DNA of 45,574 nt, taken from IMG/VR virus record IMGVR_UViG_3300045988_139688. One strand, written 5' to 3'. The translations under genes and the position numbers were made by a program. Position 1 is the first letter of the stretch. Each line of letters begins with the position of its first letter. Of this stretch, positions 6,977 to 28,650 are shown piece after piece. The DNA comes from a virus. Under the pieces are notes generated by a model. It was not told the DNA's origin. It saw nothing but the letters and a program-made list of their open reading frames with translations, and did no database searches.

Positions 6977-8482
6977 TTACAATTCCTCTTTTTCAAATGG
7001 GGGTGAGGAGAAGCTATCTTCAAGCAATTCCCTTTCCAGGGCAATCTGCTTCAGCTCTTCTTCAGCTTCATCATCAGTTAGATTTCTCCATTTTTTCATG
7101 TAAGACTTCTTAGACATTGTTTGAGCTGAGACTTCTGACAAATCTGTCTGCTTCTCTTCTGCTTCGTCTTCTGGTAATGAATACTGATTATCAACCCTTA
7201 TGCTGTAAGGTGTATCAGGTAATGGTTCAGCAGTGTAGCTTGTTACTGATTTTGGATACAAATGAGCTCCGTCAATCAAAATTTGTACAATCTTTTCAAT
7301 CGCTGGTCTCCATTCTTGCATCTTTTCATCACATCTTACAGTTAAACCCCAATACAGGGCTTTGAGCGTCTTACCACTGGATACGACACCTTGAAGTGCT
7401 TCAGGTGATGTATCTGGCATATCAAGTTCTGTGTATGCTGCATTCTTAATGCGGTTCAAGGTACTTGCAAGGGGTGCAGAATATGCCATACTTGTTTCAA
7501 GCACACCAACACTTGGAGAAGCTCCCTCTTGATTTTGGTCTGAAGATAAGTCCCAAAAAGAACCTGCGGATATTGATAACCCCTTGGTTGAGTTGGAATC
7601 CATATCAACTGTGTATCGTACAGGATTCATGCTTTGTCTTTCAGCATCAATATCTGCAGAACTCAGTCGGCTATACCAAGCTTCGCTATCTTGAAGATTT
7701 GCTACCTCTGAAATGCCGTCCAAATCACCTGTTAAGCCGTCATTACGAATGACCACTGCAGGAATATAGGTGAATTTTGTTGCCCTCGCAGGTGTAATCT
7801 CTTCAATCAACGTTCCTGTTCCATCATACAATCCTTCTTCAATCCAACAAACGCCATTCTCTATCCAGTATTTCTTCTTGTAGATACGTTGCTTGGTTTT
7901 GTTACGGTCTTCGAGTGTTGTAAAGAAACACACAACCTTGGTCAAGATATCAATGTCGTTGATGTCTGTTTCATATACGAATTCAAGAGATGGGCAGAAG
8001 TGAACATGAACCTTCTGTGTCTCTTCGTTGAAGTTAACAAAACAAGCAACTCGCTTACCGATAAAGCAATCTTTAGCAGCCTTGAGCAGGTTGGAGAAAA
8101 ATCTGGTTTTACTCAAGACCTTGTCAACATAGCTTTGAATAATGCTTGCATCAGCTTTGGATTTTTCAATCTCCGATTTGTCCTTTGAGGTAATATCAGG
8201 GTCAATCCAGATATCAGGACTTTTGCTGAACATAAATCGGGCTTCTTTGTTGATAAGAGATGCTGTTTGCTTTATACGCAGGTCTGTAGGGATGTAATCA
8301 CCTTTTGAGCCTTCTGTTGTAAAACTAGCTCCCTTCTCATAGATATCATAGTATCGAATGATTTCACCCATTTCTTTGAGAACCTTGCTTCCATACAGCC
8401 CCTCTATCTCTTGACTTATCATGTTTCGTGGAATATTGAGATAAGATTCATATATCTCTGTTCCAGATGTTACATTACTCAT
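6977..8482 (-). CDS. Portal protein
   Basis: ATG at 8482 after GGAGGTG (MSNVTSGTEIYESY...), about 501 aa, between terminase and the Mu-F-like gene. The longer track ORF (to 8596) reads through the tRNA. Confidence 0.85.
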   Translation of the reverse strand: MSNVTSGTEIYESYLNIPRNMISQEIEGLYGSKVLKEMGEIIRYYDIYEKGASFTTEGSKGDYIPTDLRIKQTASLINKEARFMFSKSPDIWIDPDITSKDKSEIEKSKADASIIQSYVDKVLSKTRFFSNLLKAAKDCFIGKRVACFVNFNEETQKVHVHFCPSLEFVYETDINDIDILTKVVCFFTTLEDRNKTKQRIYKKKYWIENGVCWIEEGLYDGTGTLIEEITPARATKFTYIPAVVIRNDGLTGDLDGISEVANLQDSEAWYSRLSSADIDAERQSMNPVRYTVDMDSNSTKGLSISAGSFWDLSSDQNQEGASPSVGVLETSMAYSAPLASTLNRIKNAAYTELDMPDTSPEALQGVVSSGKTLKALYWGLTVRCDEKMQEWRPAIEKIVQILIDGAHLYPKSVTSYTAEPLPDTPYSIRVDNQYSLPEDEAEEKQTDLSEVSAQTMSKKSYMKKWRNLTDDEAEEELKQIALERELLEDSFSSPPFEKEEL

Positions 8483-8519
8483 ATTCTCACCTCCTTGCAC
8501 ATTTGTTATATGTCTTAAT

Positions 8520-8595
8520 TGGTTGGGATAGCTGGATTCGAACCAGCGGAATGACGGAGTCAAAGTCCGTTGCCTTACCACTTGGCTATATCCCA
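8520..8595 (-). tRNA. trnQ: tRNA-Gln (anticodon UUG) with encoded CCA
   Basis: The reverse complement TGGGATATAGCCAAGTGGTAAGGCAACGGACTTTGACTCCGTCATTCCGCTGGTTCGAATCCAGCTATCCCAACCA folds as a cloverleaf. Acceptor TGGGATA/TATCCCA; anticodon stem ACGGA/TCCGT with loop CTTTGAC; T arm GCTGG-TTCGAAT-CCAGC. Overall close to bacterial tRNA-Gln. Confidence 0.85.
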
Positions 8596-8610
8596 ATGTT
8601 GAGCCACAGA

Positions 8611-9942
8611 TTATGTGGCATCTCCACCTCGTCTTGAGTTTCTTGCTCTCATCTTGGCATCTGCAACTGTGTAATTATCAAGCCCGTACCAGATAGCGGA
8701 GAATGTGTGAGGGTCAATATTGAATTCATCAAAGATTTGATTGCCGTTGTTGTCCTTAGCATAAGTCAGATTTTCAAGCTCTCGTATGCAGTTAGGACAA
8801 TCCTGACTACAGATTATCTTTGTGAATCTCTTGATTTTCCTCGTGTTACTCAGCCTTGACCCAATAGACTTGTGACAAGGTCTCATCTTAAAACCCGACT
8901 GCTGATAGAAGCTTATTGTCTTAGGTTCTGCACAATCAGCTACAATCTGTACATCCTTGTAACCTCTTGCTGCAAGCTCTTTGGCTGTTTTATCATCAGT
9001 CATGTGATTCTTGTAGTACTCCCCATAGATATACAGTATCTGGTTCTTGTTGTCAACTGCCATATCTACAAGGGCATTGTAAGATGTCTCAAAGCCGAAG
9101 TCCATACCATGGAAATGGAATACCCTATCAATGCCCTTAACAATTTTATTCACTTGTGCTGCAGGAGCAACACTGAACTGAGGCAGAACTCTTGTACCAT
9201 TGATACCAAATTGACCTTTCTTGGCAATACGCCACAAGTCAATATCGTAGGTCTTCATGTTCTCAAGTTCGTCAACATAGCTCTGCGGAAGGAACAAGTT
9301 GTCTTCACAAACGCTATGATGATAGTAGACTCCGTTCTTAATAATAGTGTGCTTCTTGTACAGCTTTTTGTCATCAAGGACAGTAACGATGTTACCTTCG
9401 TCATCTTGATGTTTGAAGAAATGTTGGTAGACCCAGTTGTCTGTACCAACAGGATTGAGGGACAAGATAATGTGTAGGCTCAAAGTCGGATGTCTTAGAC
9501 GTCCCAGGAGTTCTTTGTAGCCTGCATACTTGACCTCGCTTGCTTCTTCAATCCAGATGATGCTGATACCATTGATGGATTTCAGCTTTGCAGGTTTGTC
9601 CATGCCCTTGAAGATAACCTTGGAGCCATTCGGGAAATTCAGCTGCATTGGACTTGTCTTCGCAATGACCTTGTTTGAAATCTTTTTTGTTCCTGACTCT
9701 TCAAGGAGACCCAAATCAGATAGAATCTCTGTGAATAAGTCAAAACAGCTTTCTCGAATAGTGTCGTACACTTCACGGATGACAAGTGCTTTACGTTTCT
9801 CTTTCAACAACTTCAAGATTATCTTCAAAACCACGTGATAAGACTTGGAAGAACCATAACCACCGACTAACAGCTGTATCTTGTAGTCCCAATCAAAAAT
9901 AAAATTCTCAAATCTTGGGTTGACCGCCTTCTCGACAATCAT
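8611..9942 (-). CDS. Terminase large subunit
   Basis: 443 aa. Walker [13 protein letters not shown], Walker B-like IIWIEEASE, and a C-terminal nuclease-type region. PBSX/SPP1-like organisation. Confidence 0.9.
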
Positions 9943-13182: not shown

Positions 13183-13776
13183 ATGAACAAAGTAAAACTG
13201 TGGTTGGAAAAGGTTTTTCCAGATTACATCCTAGTAACTAGCAAGCTCAATCAGCATAAGTTCTATGTAGCCGAATGCATAGACCCAAGCCATCTACGCA
13301 GAGTCTTTGACCCGCAAGGAGGATGCAGGCTTGAATGTTCTCCAGTGTATGTTGTAATAGATACATACTGTGTAAGGCACAATATTTTTGAGGCTTCAAC
13401 TGCTACTATTGTAGATAGTATGGAAAAAGCATATGATAAATTTCCTTGGTTCTTTGTTTCTGACTCAGCACCCGAAGTAAACAACACTGAGTTGACTAAG
13501 ACACAAATACAGATTCTAACAGCCTTGAATGTTCTTGGTTATCACTGGATAACTAAAGACAAAAGTGGCAAGGTCTATCTGCATACGCATTCCCCGATTA
13601 AGCTGGAATCACATTGGATTGGTAAAGGTGGATACAGCGTAGCTTTATGTGACCTTCCTACAGCTGTAGATTTTCTTTTCACTTTGGTGTCTTGGTCTGA
13701 TACAGAACCGCTGAGCATAAGCTTGTTGATTGCAGATAAAGATGGGAGTGTTGACTGTGGTCAATCCTTGTTATAA
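13183..13776 (+). CDS. Hypothetical protein
   Basis: 197-aa ORF with an RBS (aaggtggtg); no recognisable motif. Confidence 0.7.
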   Translation: MNKVKLWLEKVFPDYILVTSKLNQHKFYVAECIDPSHLRRVFDPQGGCRLECSPVYVVIDTYCVRHNIFEASTATIVDSMEKAYDKFPWFFVSDSAPEVNNTELTKTQIQILTALNVLGYHWITKDKSGKVYLHTHSPIKLESHWIGKGGYSVALCDLPTAVDFLFTLVSWSDTEPLSISLLIADKDGSVDCGQSLL

Positions 13777-13951
13777 GTGTTCATTTCGACAATCTAAATG
13801 TGCTGTTAGCTGTAAGCATTGGCAAAACTATGTAACTTGGAGAAATGAGCAATATGAACAACGAATGCGACAACGACGTGGGGAGCTGGACTACAAGGAT
13901 TCTGTGATTACAAGGTCTTACAAAAGTCGCACTAAAAACCACAACTGGTGA
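13730..13951 (+). CDS. Small Cys-rich basic protein (start uncertain)
   Basis: NPCYKCSFRQSKCAVSCKHW followed by an Arg/Lys-rich tail. Overlaps the preceding ORF. Confidence 0.5.
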   Translation: MQIKMGVLTVVNPCYKCSFRQSKCAVSCKHWQNYVTWRNEQYEQRMRQRRGELDYKDSVITRSYKSRTKNHNW

Positions 13952-13964
13952 TTTGTTACAAGAA

Positions 13965-14030
13965 GTTAATAAATTGTTAATAATTAATTTACCAAAACTA
14001 CTTTATTGTGCAATGTAAAAGAAGTATAAT
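13965..14030 (+). promoter_or_regulatory. Conserved promoter cassette, copy B
   Basis: gttaataaaTTGTTAATAAttaaTTTACcaaaacTACTTTATT-gtgcaatgtaaaaga-AGTATAAT. Confidence 0.65.
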
Positions 14031-14080
14031 GATAATCATAAAGGAACACCTGAAACAGAAATCTAAAAGGAGAGATTATT

Positions 14081-14332
14081 ATGAAAATCAATGGCATTGA
14101 AATCAAAGGCATCAAGAAGGCAGTTGGAAACGTTCAAAAAGGTTCTTACGAGATACTTGTATATTGGACTCATGACAAGGACGTGTGGGCAGTCTGCCAG
14201 GATTGGTATGATGTAGTTGGTAAGTATGATAGCAGATGTATAAATTTGCACCCTTATCTTAAATCAATGTATAATACAGATGAATATACAATGGAAAGAG
14301 TTACAAACATCTTAGCAAAGTTTATTCTTTAA
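14081..14332 (+). CDS. Hypothetical protein
   Basis: 83 aa with an AAAGGAGAG RBS; first gene after cassette B. Confidence 0.7.
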   Translation: MKINGIEIKGIKKAVGNVQKGSYEILVYWTHDKDVWAVCQDWYDVVGKYDSRCINLHPYLKSMYNTDEYTMERVTNILAKFIL

Positions 14333-14386
14333 GCTTAATGTTTTCTGAAGAGCTTGTACAATAACAAGCTCTATCCCAATCACAAA

Positions 14387-14455
14387 TTTGTTAATAAATT
14401 GTTAATAACTTTTTTACTAAAAAGACTTTATTTGCTCTTTCGAAAGTAGTATAAT
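14387..14455 (+). promoter_or_regulatory. Conserved promoter cassette, copy C (its -10 is bracketed by a 10-bp inverted repeat)
   Basis: tttgttaataaaTTGTTAATAActtTTTTACtaaaaagACTTTATT...gtAGTATAAT. The inverted repeat is CTCTTTCGAA 14435..14444 / TTCGAAAGAG 14465..14474. Confidence 0.65.
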
Positions 14456-14556
14456 TAGTTTAAATTCGAAAGAGTTACAACACTTCACACTGAGACACTT
14501 CAAGATAGGCTAGCTCTTATCTTGTGTGATAATAATTAAATCGGGAGGAATGCATA

Positions 14557-14790
14557 ATGACCTGTCTGGAAAGGGAAAAGGTCAAGGAAGAACTTGACTA
14601 TTTAGAACGCAAGTGTGAGTTGGCTGAGAAACGACTCGAGCAGGAACGCAAAGAGCACAGAAGCTGTGAGAAAGTGAAAGATGCAATATGTATTGCAATC
14701 ATTATCTTTGCAATAACCATGAGCGTGGTTATCGGGGTAGACTTCATGAATTACCTAGATTCATTGGACTACCTGAGCTCACTGAGATAA
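14557..14790 (+). CDS. Small membrane-anchored coiled-coil protein
   Basis: 77 aa. Charged helical N-terminus and one TM segment (AICIAIIIFAITMSVVIGV). Confidence 0.65.
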   Translation: MTCLEREKVKEELDYLERKCELAEKRLEQERKEHRSCEKVKDAICIAIIIFAITMSVVIGVDFMNYLDSLDYLSSLR

Positions 14791-14819
14791 TCAAGAATCA
14801 TACAAGGAGGAATTTTAAA

Positions 14820-15374
14820 ATGTCAATAACTGTTAACCCATATGACATAAACGATACATGTAGAGTGTATCAGAGTTTAATGCACGGACTCATAATGAGA
14901 TACCCTGAATTCAAGGCTCTCGACACCTATTTGAAAGAACATCACTTCAAAGACCAGCCTGCATCTACCAAATACCATCTTAACATATCTGGAGGTCTTC
15001 TGTTACACTCTGTTAATGTAGCTCTTGTCCTTGATAAGCTGACTTCAGAACTCAATCTTCAGTGGCAACGTGCCGAAAGCCCAATTATTGTTGGTCTGTT
15101 TCATGACCTCTGTAAGCTTGATGCTTATCAACAAGACCTTGATGGATTTACATACAACGAAGACCAGCTTATCAAGGGTCATGGTGACAAATCAGTCATG
15201 GTGTTGAGCCAATTTACAACCTTGACCGAGGAAGAAGTTCTTTGTATTCGCTATCACATGGGAGCATATGAGACTGATAGCTGGAAGCAATTTGATTCAG
15301 CTATCAAGAGATACCCGAATGTGTTATTCACTCATACAGCTGACATGATAGCAAGTAAGCTCTGGGAGGATTGA
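14820..15374 (+). CDS. HD-domain phosphohydrolase (candidate dNTP/dNMP hydrolase)
   Basis: ATG 14820 after AAGGAGG. Metal-ligand pattern H...HD...H...D: KYHLN..LLLHS, GLFHDLCK, KGHGDKS, IRYHMG. Confidence 0.7.
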   Translation: MSITVNPYDINDTCRVYQSLMHGLIMRYPEFKALDTYLKEHHFKDQPASTKYHLNISGGLLLHSVNVALVLDKLTSELNLQWQRAESPIIVGLFHDLCKLDAYQQDLDGFTYNEDQLIKGHGDKSVMVLSQFTTLTEEEVLCIRYHMGAYETDSWKQFDSAIKRYPNVLFTHTADMIASKLWED

Positions 15375-16429
15375 TGATGAAGAATAAACCTGCAGATGAC
15401 TTCTACATTGATGTATCCTATTCAAATCTTGATATGACGCTGCCACAGACTAAGAAGATAAAGACGGCTAGACCAATTTTGGATGAAGACGTTTGGAACA
15501 CATTCATATATTACATCAAGGAACGGTATCACATACACGTTTTGAAGGATGTGAAGAAGCTCCCGAAGCCATGGACAAAAGATACCATACTGAAGACGTA
15601 CAGATTCACAAATGTACGTCGGGAGCATGACAAAGAAACAAAATGGCTTATCAAACACATAGCGAAGAATTCAGATTTGTCCTATGAAGACAAATTGCTA
15701 AATTGCATTCTGTTTAGGATGTTCAATAAGCATGAAACTGCCGAGATACTCAATATGCCAATTGTATTTGATGAAACCTATGACCCTGAGAATTATCGTG
15801 AGAGGCTTGAGCAGAAGGCGAAGCAAGACCCTGAGTATGTATTCTTTACACAGGCATTCTTCACAAGTGGTCAGAAGCTTGGAGCTGCTTGTTACACTCC
15901 TGGAGGGCTTAACGAGCGCAATATGGTTATAAGAATGCTCTACTTGGCACAGCATTTGGCTTCTGAAAGGATAGCAGAAGGCATTGGACAAAGCTCAGAT
16001 GGATGCTATGTTAACCCATACAATATTATATCCTTGCTTGCTTCGTACAAAGGTATTGGTGAATTTCTGTCTTACCAGATATTTGTTGATTTCACCTACA
16101 TACCTGAATTTCCGTACAGTGAGAATGAGTATGTAATAGCTGGTCCAGGCTGCAGAAATGGTTTAAGCTATCTGTTCAGAAATACAGACGGAATGACTGA
16201 CGAAGAATGCCTCTTTTGGGTAAGGAACAACTGGGATGAGCTAATTACTCGATACAAAAATGATTGGAACCCCGAAGAAATCTTTGTCGATTTGCCTGAA
16301 GAGGAACAAAAGATGAACATCATGAGTCTGGAGAACTGTTTCTGCGAACTCAGCAAGTACATCCGAGCAAAAGAGCACAAGGGTAGACCAAGAACAAAAT
16401 ACAATGGTTTTAAGGAGAAGTTGATATGA
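15374..16429 (+). CDS. All-helical protein, candidate DNA base-hypermodification enzyme (aGPT-Pplase / amino-acid:DNA transferase-like)
   Basis: About 351 aa. The N-terminal pattern ERYHIHVLKDVKKLPKPWTKDTILKTYRFTNVRREHDKETKWL matches my recollection of that family. Context is HD, dCMP deaminase and MazG. Not verified by HMM. Confidence 0.45.
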   Translation: MMKNKPADDFYIDVSYSNLDMTLPQTKKIKTARPILDEDVWNTFIYYIKERYHIHVLKDVKKLPKPWTKDTILKTYRFTNVRREHDKETKWLIKHIAKNSDLSYEDKLLNCILFRMFNKHETAEILNMPIVFDETYDPENYRERLEQKAKQDPEYVFFTQAFFTSGQKLGAACYTPGGLNERNMVIRMLYLAQHLASERIAEGIGQSSDGCYVNPYNIISLLASYKGIGEFLSYQIFVDFTYIPEFPYSENEYVIAGPGCRNGLSYLFRNTDGMTDEECLFWVRNNWDELITRYKNDWNPEEIFVDLPEEEQKMNIMSLENCFCELSKYIRAKEHKGRPRTKYNGFKEKLI

Positions 16430-16923
16430 ATAGGGCACATGGAATATTTAACTATCTGAATTTGCTGGATTTAGCACACAGCTATGCTAAGGCAGAATCA
16501 GGTTGCTGTAAAGTGACAGTTGGTAGTGTTATAGTTGAGGACAAGCAAAACCTAAGAATACTTGCTTTTGGTGCAAATAAAACTCTGCCAGTCAATTGCA
16601 AGAGCAAGGGTTGTTTAAGAATCCAGAAATATGGTAATGATGACAAAACTCATCGTAACCCTGACGACTGTAGGGCAATACACAGCGAGATTGCTGCCAT
16701 AGCAGCTGCAGCCAGACAAGGTATTTCTTTGGAGGGGGCAACGATTGTTGTTACAAGATACCCCTGTGAAGCTTGTGCAAGAGCCATTGTAGAAGCTGGA
16801 ATACAAAAGGTTGTGTATGGTAGAGAGCAAACGATGTCACAATACAGCTATGATATCTTTAAATCTGCGAAAGTAACAGTAATACACTGTTCTGATTGGA
16901 TAGAACAAGACGCAATAAACTAA
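16426..16923 (+). CDS. dCMP deaminase (ComEB/Dctd family)
   Basis: Zinc motifs HSEIAAI and PCEACARAI with correct spacing; 165 aa. Confidence 0.85.
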   Translation: MNRAHGIFNYLNLLDLAHSYAKAESGCCKVTVGSVIVEDKQNLRILAFGANKTLPVNCKSKGCLRIQKYGNDDKTHRNPDDCRAIHSEIAAIAAAARQGISLEGATIVVTRYPCEACARAIVEAGIQKVVYGREQTMSQYSYDIFKSAKVTVIHCSDWIEQDAIN

Positions 16924-16935
16924 GGAGGTACACAT

Positions 16936-17283
16936 ATGAATTTAACAGAACAACAGATTAACACCTTGGAAGAAGCTCGTAGAGTTTATGGTAATACAGC
17001 TCAGTTACTGGTATCAATCGAAGAACTCAATGAGCTGGCTTGTGTGGTTGCTAAATTTCCAAGATATGATACAGAAGAGGAAGCACGAGCGAAGCTTCAC
17101 CAGAAGGCATTGGACGAAGTTGCTGACGTCTACATTGTTCTTAACCACATTGAGACTATTCTTGGACTTGAGATGTCAGAAATTGCAAGCAGAATTGCAA
17201 GCAAGATAGACCGAGTCAATCGCTGGGTCAGCACAAATGATAAGTTCAGTCAAACACTTGTAGACAGAAACGTGGTGGAATAG
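16936..17283 (+). CDS. MazG-like all-alpha nucleoside triphosphate pyrophosphohydrolase
   Basis: 115 aa. EELNELACVVAKF ... ALDEVADVYIVLNHI matches the E-x-x-E ... E/D-x-x-D helical pattern of the small MazG family. Confidence 0.7.
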   Translation: MNLTEQQINTLEEARRVYGNTAQLLVSIEELNELACVVAKFPRYDTEEEARAKLHQKALDEVADVYIVLNHIETILGLEMSEIASRIASKIDRVNRWVSTNDKFSQTLVDRNVVE

Positions 17284-17284
17284 C

Positions 17285-19213
17285 ATGAACCTAACTGAGT
17301 TCAACAGCTTGGTGGGACAAGATAGCTATGTAAGATGCAGTAACAAGAAACGTTTGGATACAGCAATAGTGTCAAAACAGTTGGCGGAGTCTCATGTTTT
17401 CTCGGGCGGACAAATCGGTTGGTGGGTACGTCCAGGATACATAATTGTAGATATAGACGAAGGCAAACAACAGGCTATTGAGATTATCAAACGGCTCAAG
17501 CTTAAAACCCTTATGTGTAAAACACCAAAAGGTTTACATCTATACTTTCGCACTGACAAAGAATTTCCACAAAGAGTTGGCATGGTGTTGCCTTGCGGGT
17601 TAAAATGCGATTTTCGATGTGCAAACAAGGGGTATGTGATACTGCCCTGGGGTTCTGAAAACAGAGCATTTAACAGGTGCAGAGAGATAGCAGAATTGCC
17701 TTTAGAGTTCACACCAATGATAAATCGGAAAGAGAGTCTGCTTGGTCTGCACGAAGGAGATGGCAGAAATGCTACTCTGTTTGCTCACTTGATGGCTTAC
17801 AAGAACAGAGGAGCTTCTGACAAGCAAATACAAGCTATGGCTTGTGCTATCAACGATGTAATATTTACAGAACCAATGAGTGAAGAAGAGCTTGATAAAA
17901 TCATAAGCAACACAAAAAAATACGAAGCTCAACAGCAAGGTGAAAACCCTTATCTGATATATAACAGCAAAGGTATACCAACAGGTGTTAATCAGCGAGC
18001 TATATGTGATTATTTTGTCAACAGGGGAGATTTATTTGTACTGGGTGGAGAATGTTATCAATACAAAGATGGAGTGTACACAGAGTCAAGTTCTTTTGTG
18101 AGAAATACAATCAAAGATATGATAATGCTTGACCAGTTTATAACACAATCCCGAATAATGGACTGTTACAGGTTAATCATCGATGATACCCGAATTCAGC
18201 GGAATGATTCACAGCTGAACAGTAATCACAATCTTATCAACTTTAAAAATGGCGTCTGGGATGTATCCCAAAATAGATTGTTACCTCACGACAGTAAATA
18301 TCTACAAACAATTCAAATTCCTCATGAAGTCGGATTGTACAAGCCCTTTACAGAAACCAAGCTGTATCAATTCTTTAAGCTGACAAGAATTCCAAAAGAG
18401 GATGTAAAGATGATATTGAAGTACATGGCATATTGCCTAACTTTGAACTATGGTTTGAAGACCTTCATGATACTGTGTGGACAGTCTAATACAGGCAAAT
18501 CTGTATTGTTGAGATTTTTTGAGACATTAATTGGTAAACAGAATACAGCAGCATTGAGCATGCATGAGCTCTCCGCTAGGTTCTATCCAGCGAAGCTTTA
18601 CGGATGTCTATTGAATTCCTGCGGAGAGGGTGGTGCATTGCCGCTAAATAGCATTGAAAACCTCAAGAAGATAACTGGCGGAGACCCAATAATGCACGAG
18701 AAGAAGGGCAAAGAGCCGTTTTTCTTTGTACCATTTTGTAAGCTGATATTTTCATTCAACCAGCTGCCTTTGCAGCTTGAGGAGAAGTCCAATGCGTTTT
18801 ACAAGCGTATGCGTATTCTGTATATGAACAACGAATTGCATATCAATGATGCTTATGTCAACACGCTCTGCAGCAACGAGAGTGTTGAAGAGGTTATCCC
18901 CTATCTATTAAGCTTGTTACCAGTTACAGAGATACCAAGAACAACAAAGTCCAATAGAATGGTAGAAAGCCTTAGACAAGACAGTGATAGCATCCATGCA
19001 TTTATTGCTAAATGCTGCATCCAAGAGAAATCTGCCCTTGTTCCAAAAGCAGCCCTGTATGAAGCTTATGCTCAATATTGTATCTCCTCTGGACGTGAAT
19101 CACACAAAAAGCATGGGTTTATCAGGAATATCAGGTCTCTTGGCTATGAAGAAGTTAGGGATGCTAAAAGCCGTGAAGCCTGTTGGCGTGGTTTGCGATT
19201 GAGGAAGAAGTGA
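17285..19213 (+). CDS. Primase-polymerase / D5-P4-type SF3 helicase fusion
   Basis: 642 aa. N-terminal PrimPol motifs (IIVDIDEG, KTPKGLHLYFRTD) and a C-terminal Walker A (ILCGQSNTGKSVLL) with P4/D5-type spacing. Confidence 0.85.
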   Translation: MNLTEFNSLVGQDSYVRCSNKKRLDTAIVSKQLAESHVFSGGQIGWWVRPGYIIVDIDEGKQQAIEIIKRLKLKTLMCKTPKGLHLYFRTDKEFPQRVGMVLPCGLKCDFRCANKGYVILPWGSENRAFNRCREIAELPLEFTPMINRKESLLGLHEGDGRNATLFAHLMAYKNRGASDKQIQAMACAINDVIFTEPMSEEELDKIISNTKKYEAQQQGENPYLIYNSKGIPTGVNQRAICDYFVNRGDLFVLGGECYQYKDGVYTESSSFVRNTIKDMIMLDQFITQSRIMDCYRLIIDDTRIQRNDSQLNSNHNLINFKNGVWDVSQNRLLPHDSKYLQTIQIPHEVGLYKPFTETKLYQFFKLTRIPKEDVKMILKYMAYCLTLNYGLKTFMILCGQSNTGKSVLLRFFETLIGKQNTAALSMHELSARFYPAKLYGCLLNSCGEGGALPLNSIENLKKITGGDPIMHEKKGKEPFFFVPFCKLIFSFNQLPLQLEEKSNAFYKRMRILYMNNELHINDAYVNTLCSNESVEEVIPYLLSLLPVTEIPRTTKSNRMVESLRQDSDSIHAFIAKCCIQEKSALVPKAALYEAYAQYCISSGRESHKKHGFIRNIRSLGYEEVRDAKSREACWRGLRLRKK

Positions 19214-19225
19214 GGTGATGATATA

Positions 19226-19555
19226 ATGAAACTCAAGACAGTTTTCAAAATTTGCAAGAATTTGGCCAACAAGCAGCTCAAAGCAAACCCGACGCAAGGC
19301 TTTAAGGTTGAAAATGAACACGTATACCTTAAAGATGTTATCCAAGAACTTGACTTATTAACAGGCTGGTGCTATCCTGGAGAATTGGATGTGCAGCAAA
19401 TTGTGCGTTGTAAAAATTGTAAACATTACAAGAAGTTCAAGTCTAAAAACCCATACAACAGAAAAGGTTTCATATACATGTGTAAGTGTACCCGAACGCC
19501 AACTAAACCTGAATTCTATTGCGCACACGGAGAAGACAAGAGAGATATTGTTTAA
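19226..19555 (+). CDS. Cys-rich small protein
   Basis: 109 aa. RCKNCKHYKK...CKC...YCAHGE, a motif common in Firmicutes phage replication modules. Confidence 0.65.
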   Translation: MKLKTVFKICKNLANKQLKANPTQGFKVENEHVYLKDVIQELDLLTGWCYPGELDVQQIVRCKNCKHYKKFKSKNPYNRKGFIYMCKCTRTPTKPEFYCAHGEDKRDIV

Positions 19556-19572
19556 TGAAATGAGGTGTTACT

Positions 19573-19764
19573 ATGACAACAAATAAACAACCTGCCATTT
19601 TTGATGATAGGGCACTTGAAGTTCTCAGAGAAGCAAAAGCCTACGGAAAGCATGGGTCTTACAGGGATTATGAAACCTACAAATGCAAGCTCTATAATTT
19701 GGGGCTAGATGCTAAATCACTGGACGGTGCACTACGCACCTTATCTAACATCTTGCAGGTGTAA
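19573..19764 (+). CDS. Hypothetical protein
   Basis: 63 aa with an RBS (gaggtg). Confidence 0.6.
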   Translation: MTTNKQPAIFDDRALEVLREAKAYGKHGSYRDYETYKCKLYNLGLDAKSLDGALRTLSNILQV

Positions 19765-19766
19765 TC

Positions 19767-20123
19767 ATGAAGAGTCTAAATGAACAACAAGGTACAACTA
19801 TATCAGAACTCGAAGCTGCCTTGGCAGTTTGCAGAAAACTGCTCCAAGCTAAGCTGAGCGAAGGAGCAAAAGGAATCGTATTTGCCAAAGGTAAACCAAA
19901 TCAAGTTAAAATGACCTATAAGAAAGCTTATGCGGTGTTGAAAGAGCTAGAAGCCTATTTTGGCTATAAAGGATGCGTCAGTTTCGGAATCTGTAAGACA
20001 TGTACGAAATTTGATACAACAAAATTTCAAGACAAGCGGTTTGGCTACTGCGGAAATACTATGAAGCATATGTATGATACATGTGAAAAACACAGTAAAT
20101 CAGGAGGAGGATTTGGATTATGA
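19767..20123 (+). CDS. Cys-rich hypothetical protein
   Basis: 118 aa. ICKTCTKFD...YCGN...CEKH. Confidence 0.65.
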   Translation: MKSLNEQQGTTISELEAALAVCRKLLQAKLSEGAKGIVFAKGKPNQVKMTYKKAYAVLKELEAYFGYKGCVSFGICKTCTKFDTTKFQDKRFGYCGNTMKHMYDTCEKHSKSGGGFGL

Positions 20124-20347
20124 ATACCAAAATAAAAATTGAAATCTGCCCTAAGTGTCTTGGCACTGGTAAAATCAGACCAAAACAGCATCTTGTACAA
20201 ACTTCTTTGTATGACTCTGACTGGGTTCAAGACCAAGATTATGAGTGTCCAGAATGTCAAGGTTCAGGACGTGTAGTTGCAACAATCACACCTTACGTTG
20301 AAGACAAGGTGTTTGATTTGAATCATCAGGAGGTATCTCAAAAATGA
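20120..20347 (+). CDS. DnaJ-type zinc-finger mini-protein
   Basis: Two CxxCxGxG units: CPKCLGTGK and CPECQGSGR. Confidence 0.7.
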   Translation: MNTKIKIEICPKCLGTGKIRPKQHLVQTSLYDSDWVQDQDYECPECQGSGRVVATITPYVEDKVFDLNHQEVSQK

Positions 20348-22053
20348 GGTATGCTACAATTGATATTGAGACCACAGGACTGAATCGGTACAAAGACAAG
20401 ATAACCTGGATAGGAGTGGGCTTGGCTCAAGATACTAACAGTGATATTTCTAAGATGTTTATCTATGATGCAGATAGCCCAAAAGACATTCACAAATTCA
20501 AGAACCTTGTAAACAATCTGCACAAGCACAAAGTCAAGACTGTTTTTCAGAATGGCAAGTTTGATACCCTGTTCATCGAGGAAGCCCTAAGCATTAAGAT
20601 ACCGATTCACGAAGACATATTGCTAATGGGTACGGCTTATGACCTAGTTGCAGAACACGGACTGAAGAAGATGGCTCAACGGTATCTTGGTGTATGCGAT
20701 TGGGATATTTCAAAAAAGGAGAAGCTTGCAGGCAATTCTGATACTGTAGTCCCATATCTGAAAGATGATGTTACCTATTCTTGGCAACTGTTTAGATATT
20801 TTTTGGACAACATGACTGAACAACAGTTGAAAATCTATTACAAATTACTAAAACCAGCATATTTGACATACAGGGATATTGAACGTAATGGAGTGTACAT
20901 TGATTTGAAGAAGCTGAAATCAGTCCGCAAGACCTATGCAACTAGAGAAGCCCAATGCCTGAATAAGTTGAATGCTAAGTACAAGATAAACTGGAATAGC
21001 GCAGGTCAAATTCAAGAGGTGTTATTCAACAAAGAGAAAATGCCAATACTTGCAAAATCGGAGAAAACTGGTAAACCCTCTGCAAGTGCGTCTGTGCTGA
21101 AAAAACTGGCCAATAAGGGGTATGAAATACCTCAGCTTATCCTTGATTACAAGGCTGTTAACACCTTGAACAAGATGTTCTTGAGCCGTTGGGAGGGTGA
21201 TTTAGGTTCAGATTTGCGTATTCATCCTTCGTTCAATCTCACCAATGTTCGCACAGGGCGAACAAGTTGTCAAAATCCAAATCTACAACAAGTGCCGAGA
21301 AATCTTGATGTGCGAAGTTTGTTTAATGCCCCCGGAGGACGGCTATTTTTTGAGGCTGACTATTCACAGCTGGAATTGAGAATAGCTGCTGATTATGCTA
21401 ACGATAAGACTATGCTTGAGATATATCACAACAACGGTGATATACATACTACGACAGCCAAATTGATGACAGGCGGAAGAGAGCCAACCAAGGAAGAACG
21501 TGGTAAGGCTAAGGCAGTTAACTTTGGATTTTTGTATGGAATGTCAGCTCGCAAGTTTGTAGAATATGCCTATGACTCATATGGGGTAGTGTTCACGAGG
21601 TCAGAAGCTGAGACTTTCAGAAAGTTGTTTTTTGCCAAGTATAATAGGCTCTTGCCTTGGCATCATGAGCAAGAATTATTGTGTGAAGCTTTAGGCGGTG
21701 TTGCAAACAAGTTCGGCAGATTTAGGTCACTTCCAGACATCTATTCTAGCAACAAATTTGAACGCTCAGGAGCAGTCAGACGAGCTATTAATACCCCTGT
21801 ACAGGGAACAGGCTCAGATTTGCTTATCTCAGCAGTTACTCAAATCAATAAGGAGTTTAAACCCTATGGCTTGAAGGTTGTTGGCACAGTTCATGACTCT
21901 ATCCTTGGTGAATTCAATGAGAAGGATAGAGATTGGATTGTCCCAGAGATACGCAGAATCATGTTACACCCAAGAGTTCTTGATGATTTTGAAGTGGAAT
22001 TAAAAGTGCCATTGGAAGTTGATATCGGAGTTGGTCCTTGGGGTACTCATTAA
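20344..22053 (+). CDS. Family A DNA polymerase with 3'-5' exonuclease domain
   Basis: ExoI ATIDIETTGL. Pol motifs RTGRTSCQNPNLQQVP, DYSQLELRIAA, KAVNFGFLYGMS and VHDSI. Confidence 0.92.
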   Translation: MRYATIDIETTGLNRYKDKITWIGVGLAQDTNSDISKMFIYDADSPKDIHKFKNLVNNLHKHKVKTVFQNGKFDTLFIEEALSIKIPIHEDILLMGTAYDLVAEHGLKKMAQRYLGVCDWDISKKEKLAGNSDTVVPYLKDDVTYSWQLFRYFLDNMTEQQLKIYYKLLKPAYLTYRDIERNGVYIDLKKLKSVRKTYATREAQCLNKLNAKYKINWNSAGQIQEVLFNKEKMPILAKSEKTGKPSASASVLKKLANKGYEIPQLILDYKAVNTLNKMFLSRWEGDLGSDLRIHPSFNLTNVRTGRTSCQNPNLQQVPRNLDVRSLFNAPGGRLFFEADYSQLELRIAADYANDKTMLEIYHNNGDIHTTTAKLMTGGREPTKEERGKAKAVNFGFLYGMSARKFVEYAYDSYGVVFTRSEAETFRKLFFAKYNRLLPWHHEQELLCEALGGVANKFGRFRSLPDIYSSNKFERSGAVRRAINTPVQGTGSDLLISAVTQINKEFKPYGLKVVGTVHDSILGEFNEKDRDWIVPEIRRIMLHPRVLDDFEVELKVPLEVDIGVGPWGTH

Positions 22054-26726: not shown

Positions 26727-27725
26727 ATGGACTTATACAAGATTCCTGGAGATACTGGTGGAGATTGGAGACTTCAGAAATTTGTAGAATATCAACACGA
26801 AGTTCCAAGCATACATTACAGGGTATTGGGTGAGTACATAAAAAAATACCAAATCAATAAAAACAGAGCTGTTCTTATGTGTTGGTATATGTCTTGCACA
26901 TATAACGAAGTAACATGTGTATTGATGAATGAATTGATTAGCCCTAAGCTATTAAAAGACAAGACTTATGTCAATAAATTCTGGAAACAATATAAGGCTG
27001 TTCTTGATTTTGGGTCAAGCCGAAAGTACGCTAAGAACATGGACTGGATACCAGAGTTATTGCCTGAGTTCTTCAAACATGTACGAGGGAAGCCCTATGA
27101 TTGGCTAAAGACATTTCCTGATGGCAAGATTGGGTATTCTCAGATATATTCAGAAATTTCTAATCTCAAATATGTCGGAAGATTTGCTACTGATTTGTTT
27201 ATGGAATCCTTGTTGTATCTAAATGATTATTTTGGAACTAACTACATAGAACCAGAAAAACTCGATTGGAAGAACTGCAGTAACCTTACATCTGGTTTGC
27301 TTAACATCTTCTATAAGGATGAAGAAGCAAATTTGTTTGATAAAACTCACAAACTGCCTGTAGAAGAGGATTTGCTTAATGAGTATCTTTCTAAGGTCAA
27401 AGATGCAATATATCAGACTTATCCTGAACAAAGAGATGATGGTATCAATTTGTTTGTTGGAAAGATATGTAGCTTTAGGAATTTGTTCAAAAATTCAAGA
27501 TACGGAGGGTTCCATCATGATAGAGAACTAGGGGTGCTAAAAGCTTATGAGAAAGCTCTTCCTGAGTATTCTTATCTTTGGAGAAGATTCTATGGGCTGA
27601 GACGAGATATGTTTCCCAAGCACCTACTGGGTGAGCTAAATGGCTGGAACGGAATTAGAAGGGAACGCAAAAAGTTGTTTCTCTCTCAAGGACTTACAGG
27701 AGTAGAGATGAATGACCATGAATAG
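26727..27725 (+). CDS. All-helical orphan coupled to the P-loop kinase (candidate 5-HMUDK helical module or aGPT-Pplase-like transferase)
   Basis: 332 aa with an AAGGAGG RBS. It ends 10 nt before the kinase start and has no enzymatic motif I can name. Confidence 0.4.
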   Translation: MDLYKIPGDTGGDWRLQKFVEYQHEVPSIHYRVLGEYIKKYQINKNRAVLMCWYMSCTYNEVTCVLMNELISPKLLKDKTYVNKFWKQYKAVLDFGSSRKYAKNMDWIPELLPEFFKHVRGKPYDWLKTFPDGKIGYSQIYSEISNLKYVGRFATDLFMESLLYLNDYFGTNYIEPEKLDWKNCSNLTSGLLNIFYKDEEANLFDKTHKLPVEEDLLNEYLSKVKDAIYQTYPEQRDDGINLFVGKICSFRNLFKNSRYGGFHHDRELGVLKAYEKALPEYSYLWRRFYGLRRDMFPKHLLGELNGWNGIRRERKKLFLSQGLTGVEMNDHE

Positions 27726-27735
27726 GAGAGTTGCT

Positions 27736-28362: not shown

Positions 28363-28378
28363 TCAGGAGGATACAGCT

Positions 28379-28546: not shown

Positions 28547-28650
28547 ACCTATCCTGTTGCATTCCGAGCTATTAAAGACCAATTTGTTTGGAAATTTTGG
28601 AAGCAACAAGTAAAAACGTAACATAGACTAAATTAAGGAGGAGTTCTATT

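Follow-up and report, generated by a model that had tools for sequence, protein, structure and literature searches.

A PF18723 gene block and its probable place in a two-part thymidine-hypermodification pathway of an uncultivated phage

Introduction

What does a compact block of genes directly upstream of a primase-helicase do for an uncultivated phage of about 45 kb? The block lies in IMG/VR virus record IMGVR_UViG_3300045988_139688, and the window (the whole stretch of DNA analyzed) comprises 45,574 nucleotides. The phage belongs to a family of 40- to 55-kb contigs whose nearest GenBank relatives are phages from fecal samples and Clostridium phages. A preliminary description made from the letters alone had read the block as a coupled nucleotide-pool and modification module in which an HD hydrolase and a MazG-type enzyme destroy a canonical nucleotide, a deaminase feeds the pyrimidine branch, and a helical protein acts as a transferase-like enzyme. 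Our analysis leads us to consider it probable that 14820..17283 holds half of a thymidine-hypermodification pathway whose other half lies at 26727..29830. We established directly how the genes are laid out, which families they belong to, which folds they match, which motifs they conserve, and how they share synteny and co-vary; from there we infer all substrates and products.

Results

Gene organization

Four plus-strand open reading frames in the ORF list are tightly packed within 14820..17283 (Table 1). The HD ATG at 14820 is preceded by AAGGAGG, while a possible alternative ATG at 14688 has no Shine-Dalgarno sequence. The HD and helical genes meet in TGATG at 15372..15376 with GGAGGA just upstream, the helical and deaminase genes overlap in ATGA at 16426..16429 with AAGGAG upstream, the 12-nt spacer between the deaminase and MazG-like genes contains GGAGG before 16936, and a gap of 1 nt separates the end of the MazG-like gene from the primase-helicase start at 17285. 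No terminator-like site was found on the plus strand across 13700..19400. The genes of the block are co-transcribed, and the junctions agree with the earlier view of a coupled set placed directly upstream of the primase-helicase.

Table 1. Coordinates of the features discussed in the text.
Feature	Position	Strand	Length	Basis or remark
HD protein	14820..15374	+	184 aa	metal-dependent phosphohydrolase family
Helical protein, PF18723 (HMUDK_hel)	15374..16429	+	351 aa	
dCMP deaminase	16426..16923	+	165 aa	
MazG-like all-alpha NTP pyrophosphohydrolase	16936..17283	+	115 aa	
Primase-helicase	17285..19213	+		Pfam D5_N, DUF5906, PriCT_1; context gene closing the block
Family A DNA polymerase (PolA)	20344..22053	+		tblastn, 62% identity to the DNA polymerase of bajarodcaudo virus 5
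Divergent amino acid:DNA transferase-like protein (AADT / aGPT-Pplase2 type)	26727..27725	+	332 aa	AF2 and Foldseek
5-HMUDK (P-loop 5-hmdU DNA kinase)	27712..28362	+		PF18748
dNMP (thymidylate-type) kinase	28651..29133	+		PF02223, TIGR00041
Thymidylate-synthase-fold enzyme	29126..29830	+		PF00303, phmmer

The helical protein belongs to PF18723

The helical protein, whose translation contains PWT.D.IL..YRFTNVRRE.DK.T.WL, matches PF18723 in Pfam with 225 bits (1.6e-66) and does not match PF18724, the family of the proven clade-2 transferases. It shares 36% identity, across 99% of its length, with gp160 of Salmonella phage ViI (Vi01_130c, orf00160), which scores 279 bits against PF18723 and, at 407 aa versus 351 aa, is likewise a stand-alone protein; gp160 has been listed as aG/PT-PPlase1 (Lee 2018, PMC5889632). 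The window protein is clearly a genuine PF18723 member of the ViI gp160 type ('aGPT-Pplase1'). The earlier guess of an alpha-glutamyl/putrescinyl-thymine pyrophosphorylase was essentially right with respect to this literature group, but Pfam places the protein in PF18723 and not in the biochemically proven clade 2 (PF18724). The match to gp160 gives family membership and no mechanism, and we know of no PF18723 member with a demonstrated activity.

An AF2 model of the protein (pLDDT 85.8) is all-alpha. The structure search that had been suggested as a check on the family guess found Pplase1 clade 1 (E 1.4e-6) and an amino acid:DNA transferase (E 1.2e-3) in BFVD, with TM up to 0.80; in the PDB the best matches were HhH glycosylases at E 0.4-1, and 8z2m was not among the best 50. 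The helical protein and the amino acid:DNA transferases are all-alpha paralogues. Through the BFVD intermediates the helical protein is structurally related to the clade-2 enzymes PaMx11 gp46 (PUGT, 8z2m), M6 gp51, and ViI gp247 (PF18724, aGPT-Pplase2), all of which are all-alpha, HhH-like, base-flipping transferases, and an E-[TN]-x-x-C motif is common to both groups.

Among 73 distinct homologues, which come from very different phages, F78, R83, D86, R115, D239, C324, E325, and K328 are invariant and the motif [EQ]320-[NH]321-x-x-C324 is conserved. This motif resembles E243-T244-x-x-C247 of PUGT, which provides two metal ligands and the nucleophilic cysteine (PMC11472151), and a cysteine and a nearby glutamate are essential in M6 gp51 and ViI gp247 (PMC8989533). 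hhalign superposes the helical and PUGT motifs, at a level that is not statistically significant (E 0.039, probability 1.3%), and a profile-profile comparison of the two window paralogues (15374..16429 versus 26727..27725) gave no match. Going by the conserved residues, we take the helical protein to be a catalytically active, cysteine-dependent transferase paralogue, which would flip a 5-hmdU-derived base out of the DNA and attack C6, and whose product would not be the main hypermodified base.

The second block and the DNA polymerase

The 26727..27725 protein has no Pfam match, and its AF2 model (pLDDT 84.6) finds 8z2m (PaMx11 gp46/PUGT) as the top Foldseek match in the PDB (probability 1.00, TM 0.52/0.58, E 0.018), which upholds the earlier claim of a second helical paralogue. 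In some close relatives it is fused, as the N-terminal part, to the DNA kinase, giving 531-aa proteins that carry PF18748. At 45% identity it resembles LysYB1 M3_0048, a protein with a weak PF18724 match, and its profile aligns C248 to the catalytic cysteine of Tonitrus Pplase2 (E 0.003). The essential proximal glutamate appears to be missing, with Val/Gly in place of Glu-Thr, so that either paralogue could carry out the transfer step in this phage.

The P-loop kinase at 27712..28362 matches PF18748 (HMUDK_HMUD1; 4.1e-26, 92 bits against a cut-off of 27) and is 36% identical to an uncharacterized Vi01 ORF at 38329..38763 of that record. The dNMP kinase (PF02223, 2.7e-11; TIGR00041, 1.1e-13), a homologue of which was detected in a single related locus (L113), would phosphorylate 5-hmdUMP. 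The thymidylate-synthase-fold enzyme matches PF00303 (3.3e-24), has a phmmer match to SPO1 gp29, annotated as a dUMP hydroxymethylase (1.7e-23), and is 28% identical to a gene of the PaMx11-like cluster; no other thymidylate-synthase-like gene was seen among the larger ORFs scanned. It is a putative dUMP hydroxymethylase, the fold by itself fitting a thymidylate synthase equally well. PolA, for which the Pfam DNA_pol_A support consists of precomputed matches of its counterparts in three related loci (L003-L005), presumably incorporates 5-hmdUTP.

Deaminase and MazG-like protein

The deaminase matches PF00383 (4.5e-18), PHROG 174 (dCMP deaminase, 4e-33), ComEB TIGR02571 (6.5e-20), and SPO1 gp21.8, and its translation shows the HSE and PCEAC zinc motifs; it would supply dUMP to the hydroxymethylase. 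The MazG-like protein has no Pfam match and is matched by PHROG 2245 (NTP pyrophosphohydrolase, 4e-12). Across 24 homologues the EExxE...ExxD signature is invariant, as are G19, Q23, E29, E30, E33, K40, R43, E61, D64, K90, and R93. The window protein lacks the Cys-rich extension found at the C terminus of many relatives. The family profile finds Bacillus subtilis YpjD (2gta) as the best solved relative (E 0.0024), and the window protein has the EExxE...ExxD metal-binding signature and its size in common with YpjD and MazZ (7ody), although sequence similarity is marginal. We predict that it is a dTTP/dUTP pyrophosphatase.

The roles that had been proposed for these two enzymes match an experimentally reconstructed pathway, that of Acinetobacter phage 15599, in which a dCMP deaminase (DctD) works alongside a dTTPase/dUTPase that spares 5-hmdUTP (PMC13458397). 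The dapT pathway of this phage (SH-Ab 15599; NAR 2026) comprises DctD, a dUMP hydroxymethylase, and the gp18 dTTPase/dUTPase along with 5-HMUDK and Pplase2, and the functional set of the window genome is alike: deaminase, thymidylate-synthase-like enzyme, dNTP pyrophosphatase, DNA kinase, transferase, and a PF18723 gene. The two systems differ in their pyrophosphatases: in 15599 a dUTPase_2 domain is joined to a kinase-like one, and the window has a 115-aa MazG-like protein, to which the proven dUTPase_2 domain of gp18 has no detectable sequence relation. Moreover, 15599 is a 143-kb member of the Ackermannviridae, and in the window genome of about 45 kb, unlike in 15599, the modification genes form two blocks with about 10 kb between them. 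ViI resembles the window genome in combining PF18723 with genes for a 5-hmdU DNA kinase, clade-2 transferase, and thymidylate-synthase-like enzyme; a MazG-like gene lies next to gp160 there too, but it has no detectable sequence similarity to the window MazG.

Synteny, co-variation, and the HD protein

A homologue of the helical protein is encoded in 78 IMG/VR loci. The order helical, deaminase, MazG-like, and primase gene within 5 kb was found in 44 of them, and an HD gene ends less than 800 nt upstream in half of these ordered loci (22/44); the arrangement is more than chance. A deaminase is present in 49 of the 78. Nearly all loci of the phage's family have a primase-helicase with 65-77% identity, and further downstream the gene order SSB, transferase, kinase, thymidylate-synthase-like enzyme, and SNF2 recurs in related loci.

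The closest GenBank relative, bajarodcaudo virus 5 (PolA 62% identical), shares primase, PolA, PD-(D/E)XK, Sak4, SSB, SNF2, and HD genes with the window. Scanning of its 16.5..58.2 kb revealed no helical, deaminase, MazG, transferase, kinase, or thymidylate-synthase-like gene. The deaminase and the MazG-like gene vary together with the modification gene set and the HD gene does not. Bajarodcaudo virus 5 retains HD (6e-32) though none of the modification genes was found in that range.

The HD protein reaches 21.5 bits against Pfam HD (cut-off 22) and is matched by PHROG 5889/28876. Its metal ligands H53, H63, H95-D96, H121, H146, and D175 (H..HD..H..H..D) are the same in all 18 homologues, 15 of which match TraI_2. 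The closest solved relative, at a weak E of 0.036, is the HD domain of YhaM/Cbf1. The metal ligands and an upstream 'F..PA....H....GGL..H' segment are common to the window protein, the YhaM/Cbf1 3'-5' exonuclease HD domains, and TraI_2; the window protein differs from YhaM/Cbf1 in its lack of an OB-fold domain, its mere 184 aa, and the weak similarity, and it could equally be a nucleotidase. The family also occurs in Faecalibacterium phages, Streptococcus phages MS1/Dp-1, and Lak phages with no modification pathway annotated nearby. This occurrence, together with the retention of HD in bajarodcaudo virus 5, does not support the earlier view of the HD protein as a pathway-specific destroyer of a canonical nucleotide; it is a co-transcribed gene of the core replication module of the lineage and is not counted in the modification pathway.

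The same data bear on whether the block might be ordinary nucleotide salvage or house-cleaning for dTTP, with the thymidylate-synthase-like enzyme a true thymidylate synthase and no base replacement. Genes for dCMP deaminase, MazG, and HD proteins occur commonly where phage DNA is canonical, and this HD family is seen in such contexts. We nevertheless regard this reading as very improbable, since PF18723, PF18748, and a PUGT-fold protein are present, the characterized members of which all come from thymidine-hypermodifying phages, since the deaminase and MazG genes vanish with those families in the nearest relative, and since the thymidylate-synthase-like protein is closest to enzymes of hydroxymethylase-type clusters.

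Discussion

Within a probable hypermodification pathway, the puzzling member is the PF18723 protein. It has counterparts in ViI, in PaMx11-like phages, and in 15599, for which thymidine hypermodification is proven. The PF18723 gene of PaMx11-like phages (1.3e-39) adjoins the kinase gene, and the counterpart in 15599, SHAb15599_00016 (hmmsearch 2.3e-57; PF18723 6.2e-40), lies immediately upstream of the genes for the hydroxymethylase and the gp18 dTTPase/dUTPase. PF18723 tracks the dUMP hydroxymethylase rather than the DNA kinase. Adduct formation depends on the clade-2 transferases, which suffice for it once the kinase is present, and PF18723 proteins are not needed: they were dispensable for the kinase and transferase steps in M6 lysates and in the reconstitution of dapT in E. 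coli (PMC13458397). Their role could be subtle or non-enzymatic.

One speculative role, which we consider unlikely, is the conversion of leftover 5-hmdU or 5-PmdU in DNA to thymine. Here Cys324 would attack C6, loss of phosphate or water would yield the exocyclic methylene, and a hydride donor, not an amino acid, would resolve the intermediate. In phiW-14 and SP10, 5-hmdU is converted in situ either to the hypermodified base or to thymidine, the latter by a route called 'still unknown' (Lee 2018, PMC5889632), and M6 gp51 with borohydride turns 5-PmdU into thymidine (PMC8989533), so that the chemistry of a paralogue can deliver T. Retention of the Glu-x-x-x-Cys signature and dispensability for adduct formation are consistent with such a role, as is the phyletic pattern: PF18723 occurs in every hydroxymethylase-based hypermodifier checked (ViI, PaMx11-like, LysYB1, 15599, and the window phage's family), among 29 loci from other kinds of phage, 17 have its gene beside a thymidylate-synthase-like gene, and SPO1, which has neither DNA kinase nor transferase and leaves its 5-hmdU unmodified, lacks it across the complete genome (best E 0.072). 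Tonitrus, a Rhodococcus phage with a TET/JBP-based pathway that begins with thymine, has a kinase and Pplase2 and yet no PF18723 in the 50 of 58 kb scanned, and it is the one TET-based genome behind this negative. The all-alpha protein, moreover, has no cofactor-binding domain or obvious hydride source, and Microbacterium phage Hasitha, with PF18723, a thymidylate-synthase-like gene, two TAGT glycosyltransferases, and no detectable DNA kinase, would need another leaving group. In the literature consulted, no report was found of dT formation with ViI gp160 or M6 gp55 present, and a post-replicative origin of genomic T would have to be assumed for ViI, M6, and the window phage.

Alternatively, the protein may be a module without catalysis of its own that recognizes DNA or the base on behalf of the 5-hmdU DNA kinase and possibly sets the sequence context, a reading we find unlikely. 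It fits the Pfam name HMUDK_hel, the module being encoded separately here, and hypermodification is sequence-specific, occurring at TG/TC sites, while PF18723 is dispensable for bulk activity in vitro. The domain is fused to the kinase in SP10 gp186, although the SP10 kinase domain is active alone, and its gene adjoins that of the kinase in M6/PaMx11-like phages, although in the window phage's family the kinase is fused to the other paralogue and 42 Microbacterium phage records have PF18723 without a detectable kinase. An invariant Cys-Glu-x-x-Lys and several acidic residues across the 73 homologues would also be unusual for a pure binding module.

The conserved Cys/Glu motif, together with the fold class, would suit a second transferase, which, as the preliminary description proposed, might make a different adduct or carry out a second step on the first; in the window the proximal Glu appears to be missing from the 26727 paralogue, which would even leave room for the PF18723 protein as the main transferase, and a TAGT glycosyltransferase gene directly follows the PF18723 gene in 15 related loci. 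We think this quite unlikely. Phages with both paralogues (phiW-14, SP10, ViI, M6, PaMx11, and 15599) contain, as far as reported, one hypermodified base plus thymine, a clade-2 enzyme and the kinase alone make the adduct, and PF18723 is conserved across phages far beyond what adduct diversity would suit. Some other role takes up the remaining probability.

For the hypermodification pathway as a whole, family membership and the reconstructed pathways of phiW-14, SP10, ViI, M6, and 15599 suggest the pre-replicative steps, the logic of which is as in Bacillus phage SPO1 (gp29 dUMP hydroxymethylase, dCMP deaminase, dUTPase/dTTPase). The deaminase would make dUMP, the thymidylate-synthase-like enzyme would convert it to 5-hmdUMP, and the dNMP kinase with host kinases would raise this to 5-hmdUTP, while the MazG-like protein most likely hydrolyzes dTTP and dUTP to monophosphates so that PolA incorporates 5-hmdU. 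After replication, the P-loop kinase would phosphorylate 5-hmdU in the DNA and the transferase-like protein of the second block would swap the phosphate for some nucleophile. The window phage would thereby employ a known type of pathway, one that replaces thymine in phage DNA with a decorated base, and PF18723 is a conserved family that accompanies this pathway.

A coupled gene block and a second block downstream

In the window, the genes for an HD protein, a helical protein, a deaminase, and a MazG-like protein lead directly into the primase-helicase gene, and the four-gene coupled arrangement put forward in a preliminary description is confirmed by the open reading frames together with their overlaps and short spacers. 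Reading of the sequence places TGATG at the HD/helical junction (15372..15376) and an ATGA overlap at the helical/deaminase junction (16426..16429); a 12-nt spacer separates the deaminase gene from the MazG-like start at 16936, and a single nucleotide separates the MazG-like gene from the primase-helicase start at 17285. The junctions between the genes of the block are thus tightly coupled. Shine-Dalgarno sequences stand ahead of the four starts (AAGGAGG at 14820, GGAGGA at 15374, AAGGAG at 16426, and GGAGG at 16936). A scan of 13700..19400 found no terminator-like site on the + strand, and promoter-like matches around the block, like the promoter and terminator scan as a whole, were not above shuffled controls. 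Megablast of 14000..20000 against GenBank phages gave no match.

Genes of the coupled block and of the second block
Feature	Coordinates	Strand	Length	Remark
HD protein	14820..15374	+	184 aa	
Helical protein	15374..16429	+	351 aa	PF18723
dCMP deaminase (predicted)	16426..16923	+	165 aa	
MazG-like protein	16936..17283	+	115 aa	
Primase-helicase	17285..19213	+		next after MazG-like gene
Transferase-like protein (26727 protein)	26727..27725			fold match to 8z2m
P-loop 5-hmdU DNA kinase	27712..28362			PF18748
Thymidylate-kinase-type dNMP kinase	28651..29133			profile matches
TS-fold enzyme, dUMP hydroxymethylase-like	29126..29830			PF00303

The deaminase matches PF00383 (4.5e-18, 65.5 bits against a cut-off of 25) and PHROG 174 (4e-33), its translation holds the zinc motifs HSE and PCEAC, and the gene product is a predicted zinc-dependent dCMP deaminase of the CDA fold. 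The MazG-like protein has no Pfam or NCBIfam match in the window, and 1 of 24 MazG-like relatives matches PF03819 or PF12643 at E < 0.01. The protein does match PHROG 2245, "NTP pyrophosphohydrolase" (4e-12), a search with its family profile hits B. subtilis YpjD (2gta) with an E value of 0.0024, and a MazG signature, E29-E30-x-x-E33 ... E61-x-x-D64, is invariant among 24 homologues together with several basic residues. Many of the homologues carry a C-terminal Cys-rich extension (CxxC ... CxxC, up to about 80 residues) that is missing from the 115-aa protein of the window. A preference for dTTP/dUTP over 5-hmdUTP, as the MazG-like protein may have it, finds its precedent in gp18, the dTTPase/dUTPase of Acinetobacter phage SH-Ab 15599 (15599), which belongs to a different family from the MazG-like protein of the window (PMC13458397).

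The second block lies about 10 kb downstream of 14820..17283. Its kinase scores 92 bits against PF18748 (cut-off 27) and contains the P-loop GTNGSGKS, and its thymidylate synthase (TS)-fold enzyme matches PF00303 (3.3e-24) as well as SPO1 gp29, annotated as dUMP hydroxymethylase (1.7e-23). A homologue of the dNMP kinase was detected in a single related locus (L113), and the other relatives pass directly from the kinase to the TS-like gene. None of the larger unassigned open reading frames of the window resembles a tailoring enzyme of the PLP, radical SAM, FAD, or acetyltransferase type.

The 26727 protein gave no Pfam, NCBIfam, or PDB sequence match, and its family profile likewise found nothing meaningful in the PDB. 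The sole strong PDB match of its AlphaFold model (pLDDT 84.6) is 8z2m (probability 1.00, TM 0.52/0.58), the glycinyltransferase gp46/PUGT of PaMx11, which acts on phosphorylated 5-hmdU (5-PmdU) (PMC11472151). The protein shares 45% identity with a Lysinibacillus phage protein, itself a weak match to PF18724 ("amino acid:DNA transferase"), the family of the proven clade-2 transferases; hhalign detected no relationship between the 26727 family and the PaMx11-like gp46. In several close relatives (59-81% identical), the counterpart is fused, as the N-terminal part, to the kinase in proteins of 529-534 aa with PF18748. The transferase-like genes of relatives range in identity from 66% to about 25%, against 50-70% for neighboring genes, and this divergence beside steadier neighbors suggests that adducts differ within the phage family.

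The helical protein is a PF18723 member with a conserved Cys motif

The 351-aa protein matches PF18723 with 225 bits (cut-off 25; 1.6e-66) over residues 39-334, corresponding to model positions 2-276 of 281, and PHROG 2396 at 1.6e-79; judged by these matches, it is an unambiguous member of PF18723. The Pfam title of this family is HMUDK_hel, 5-hmdU DNA kinase helical domain. The preliminary description had associated the protein, by an N-terminal motif that is indeed present, with the predicted alpha-glutamyl/putrescinyl-thymine pyrophosphorylases, families reportedly defined by Iyer et al. 2013. That association holds for the group named aGPT-Pplase1, to which ViI gp160 belongs, and fails for the clade-2 family in which transferase activity has been shown: at E <= 0.01, Pfam reported PF18723 alone for the helical protein and no PF18724 match, and a genuine PF18724 member, the gp46-like protein of PAKlein3, scores 96 bits for scale.

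The AlphaFold model of the helical protein (pLDDT 85.8) leads to the same group. In Foldseek searches of BFVD, it matched HMUDK_hel proteins with TM up to 0.80, the SP10 kinase fusion F8WQ30 (E 3e-13), phiW-14 C9DG43 (E 1.2e-8), "Pplase1 clade 1" proteins (E 1.4e-6), and an "amino acid:DNA transferase domain" protein (E 1.2e-3, probability 1.0, TM 0.46-0.48). Nothing in the PDB was significant by Foldseek; 8z2m was not among the best 50 matches, and the top ones were the HhH glycosylases AlkA, EndoIII, and Mag1 (E 0.4-1), which are at most consistent with the published HhH-like prediction. PDB sequence searches with the protein and with its family profile found nothing meaningful, and an exact-sequence contig look-up for the protein returned no record.

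An alignment of 73 distinct PF18723 homologues, drawn from this phage family, Ackermannviridae, M6/PaMx11-like phages, a Lysinibacillus phage, and others, revealed eight invariant residues that the window protein shares (F78, R83, D86, R115, D239, C324, E325, and K328). Glu occupies position 320 in 62 sequences and Gln in 11; at position 321, Asn is found in 69 sequences and His in 2. These residues, with the invariant Cys, make up the motif [EQ]-[NH]-x-x-C (E320-N321-x-x-C324 in the window), which has the same spacing as E243-T244-x-x-C247 of PUGT, in which Glu and Thr hold a metal and Cys attacks C6 (PMC11472151); Cys and a nearby Glu are essential in M6 gp51 and ViI gp247 (Lee et al. 2021; PMC8989533). 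The helical-family motif was superimposed on the gp46-like motif by hhalign at a nonsignificant E value of 0.039. Because the motif is invariant, we favor the view that the PF18723 protein is an active, Cys-dependent enzyme over the view that it is a passive DNA-binding module.

The two helical proteins of the window showed no significant relationship by hhalign (E 0.13, a 35-column HhH-like stretch). In a weak alignment (E 0.003), the invariant C248 of the 26727 family falls on the catalytic Cys of Pplase2 from Rhodococcus phage Tonitrus (DINLFVGKIC versus DIAQVETSLC), and the 26727 protein appears to have Val-Gly at the position of the essential Glu-Thr. If this alignment is right, the PF18723 protein would be the paralogue with the canonical active-site signature here.

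Three of the four block genes probably belong to the modification set

The preliminary description had cast the HD protein, along with the MazG-like protein, as the kind of enzyme with which base-substituting phages destroy the canonical dNTP. With 21.5 bits, the HD protein narrowly misses the Pfam HD cut-off of 22, and its metal ligands H53, H63, H95-D96, H121, H146, and D175 are invariant among 18 homologues; Pfam TraI_2 matches 15 of the 18 family members, and among characterized proteins the HD domains of YhaM/Cbf1 exonucleases come closest, at a weak E value of 0.036. Among 78 IMG/VR loci with a PF18723 homologue, a deaminase gene occurs in 49, a MazG-like gene in 47, and an HD gene in 29. 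The order helical, deaminase, MazG-like, primase within 5 kb is found in 44 of the 78, and in half of these (22/44) the HD gene lies directly upstream.

A comparison within the lineage is provided by bajarodcaudo virus 5 (PQ006096), from rodent feces, the closest GenBank relative by PolA (62% identity). It has the primase-helicase, PolA, PD-(D/E)XK nuclease, Sak4-like ATPase, SSB-like protein, and SNF2 helicase in common with the window, and it retains the HD protein (6e-32). A search of 16.5..58.2 kb of its record (41.7 kb) found none of the genes for PF18723, the deaminase, the MazG-like protein, the transferase-like protein, the kinase, and the TS-like protein, and it is a natural "minus" comparison for the lineage. 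Because this virus keeps the HD gene without the pathway, and because members of the HD family turn up elsewhere, in a temperate Faecalibacterium phage, Streptococcus phages MS1 and Dp-1, and Lak phages, the HD protein would be a lineage core gene and not part of the modification set. Synteny, the pathway-free relative, and the distribution of the HD family elsewhere together argue that the helical protein, the deaminase, and the MazG-like protein, three of the block's four products, belong to that set. The HD protein showed no BLASTP similarity to the YfbR-like HD protein of the PaMx11-like cluster, nor did the MazG-like protein to the MazG-like neighbor in ViI, so that the same function in other clusters is an analogy only.

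Between the PF18723 gene and the deaminase gene, relatives have a variable slot of 16-1431 nt (for example, L005:9474-10295 and L003:6148-6681). In 15 loci the slot is occupied by a TAGT (TET-associated) glycosyltransferase and in 6 by a Spo0A_C-like protein, and 5 loci have small Cys-rich proteins there. The slot is empty in the window, where the two genes overlap. At least one contig with TAGT (IMGVR 3300045988_153043) also has the transferase-like gene and the kinase.

Several further features of the window were seen. A tRNA-Gln (anticodon TTG) at 8520..8595 on the - strand closely follows the terminase large subunit gene (8611..9942, - strand). It overlaps the 5' end of the next ORF in its longest reading (6977..8596), and this ORF therefore probably starts further in. 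The signs of both GC skew and AT skew switch near 11-12 kb and 32-33 kb, and these switches coincide with the border between structural/packaging genes on the - strand and replication/modification genes on the + strand. The IMG/VR contig 3300045988_154331 (44,759 bp) is a near-identical relative with 92-99% amino-acid identity, so the window is probably a nearly complete genome.

PF18723 tracks the hydroxymethylase across phages

By tblastn, the helical protein matched 436 phage records, mainly Ackermannviridae. The counterpart in Salmonella phage Vi01 (36% identity, 99% coverage) is Vi01_130c, orf00160, which is ViI gp160 and appears as "aG/PT-PPlase1" in Table 3 of Lee et al. 2018 (PMC5889632); a gene annotated as MazG-like lies directly upstream of it. 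In the PaMx11-like phage PAKlein3, the PF18723 gene (1.3e-39) comes right after the kinase gene, and equivalents are labelled aGPT-Pplase1 in the M6-like phage SN1 and by SEA-PHAGES annotators. In 15599, the PF18723 protein is SHAb15599_00016 (hmmsearch 2.3e-57, Pfam 6.2e-40), whose gene immediately precedes those for the dUMP hydroxymethylase and the gp18 dTTPase/dUTPase (L089:8961-12326). ORF233c of Aeromonas phage 31 was considered as an informative PF18723 fusion and set aside as uninformative, with a 17-bit partial match and an unannotated N terminus.

PF18723 was found in every hydroxymethylase-based hypermodifier checked. It shares a genome with a known or predicted TS-fold dUMP hydroxymethylase in the window, 15599, Microbacterium phage Hasitha, and a PaMx11-like phage, and in 17 of 29 IMG/VR loci of other phage types, a TS-like gene lies within 2.5 kb of the PF18723 gene. 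Neither the whole SPO1 genome (best E 0.072) nor the first 50 of 58 kb of Tonitrus, a TET/JBP-based system with Pplase2 and a kinase, contains it. Hasitha (MZ622182; 40 kb) encodes PF18723, a TS-like protein, two TAGT glycosyltransferases, a dNMP kinase, and a MazG-like protein (L087 3543-10373), whereas neither a 5-hmdU DNA kinase nor an amino acid:DNA transferase could be detected. This gene content suggests a pathway to glycosylated 5-hmdU where PF18723 acts in the absence of the kinase. Of the 436 helical-protein matches, 42 are from Microbacterium, which was not among the organisms listed for the kinase search. In this phyletic pattern, taken over the hypermodifiers, Hasitha, SPO1, and Tonitrus, PF18723 thus tracks the hydroxymethylase plus some further processing of 5-hmdU, not the kinase/transferase pair as such.

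Discussion

The earlier interpretation of the block as one of nucleotide-pool and modification genes was largely right, with the family of the helical protein now specified as PF18723 and the HD protein placed outside the pathway. From family membership and published pathways, the most likely route would begin with the deamination of dCMP to dUMP, followed by hydroxymethylation to 5-hmdUMP and its phosphorylation; the MazG-like enzyme would remove dTTP and dUTP, PolA would build 5-hmdU DNA, the kinase would convert this to 5-PmdU, and the 26727 protein, or possibly the PF18723 protein, would attach the nucleophile.

In studied phages, the kinase puts one phosphate on 5-hmdU in DNA (Lee et al. 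2021; PMC8989533), and the clade-2 proteins M6 gp51, ViI gp247, PaMx11 gp46, and phiW-14 gp109 swap that phosphate for glycine, serine, or putrescine (PMC8989533). M6 gp55 is not required for adduct formation in lysates, and the SP10 kinase domain is active without its C-terminal helical domain (PMC8989533). The dapT pathway of 15599, whose reconstruction was published in 2026, was made in E. coli by deaminase, hydroxymethylase, dTTPase/dUTPase, kinase, and Pplase2 alone, and SHAb15599_00016 was not included in that reconstitution (PMC13458397). We found no activity for any PF18723 member in the literature on these pathways. PF18723 is the one conserved component of these pathways still without an assigned reaction, and from its conserved residues it is apparently catalytic.

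In phiW-14 and SP10, 5-hmdU in DNA becomes either the hypermodified base or thymidine, by a thymidine route that "is still unknown" (Lee et al. 2018; PMC5889632), and transferase chemistry gives thymidine when borohydride takes the place of the amino acid (PMC8989533). This leads us to speculate, while regarding the idea as rather unlikely, that PF18723 proteins (ViI gp160, M6 gp55, 15599 gene 16, and the product of 15374..16429) turn unused 5-hmdU or 5-PmdU in DNA into thymine, using the same Cys-C6/exocyclic-methylene chemistry as the transferases with hydride as the resolver. Such a role, if true, would explain why PF18723 tracks the dUMP hydroxymethylase and not the DNA kinase, why it is missing from SPO1 and from one TET/JBP-based system, and why it is dispensable for the adduct, and it would suit the catalytic motif kept in this paralogue; however, no hydride cofactor site is visible in the protein, the kinase-less Microbacterium case fits poorly, and the TET-based negative is a single genome. 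PF18723 is a concrete candidate for the unexplained step from 5-hmdU to thymine of Lee et al. 2018 in phiW-14, SP10, and their kin, and the main added value of the present analysis is a sharper question about the role of this family.

The system itself is of a known kind. What the analysis adds is its setting: a large, uncultivated family of 40-55 kb phages is shown to have a complete gene set for thymidine hypermodification, and its nearest sequenced relatives come from fecal viromes and Clostridium phages. Unusual in this family are a transferase that is too divergent for any sequence model and is fused to the DNA kinase in relatives, and a variable slot that is often occupied by a TAGT glycosyltransferase in relatives. 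Undescribed thymine derivatives are probably present in these phages, and such bases would block restriction enzymes and hamper sequencing.
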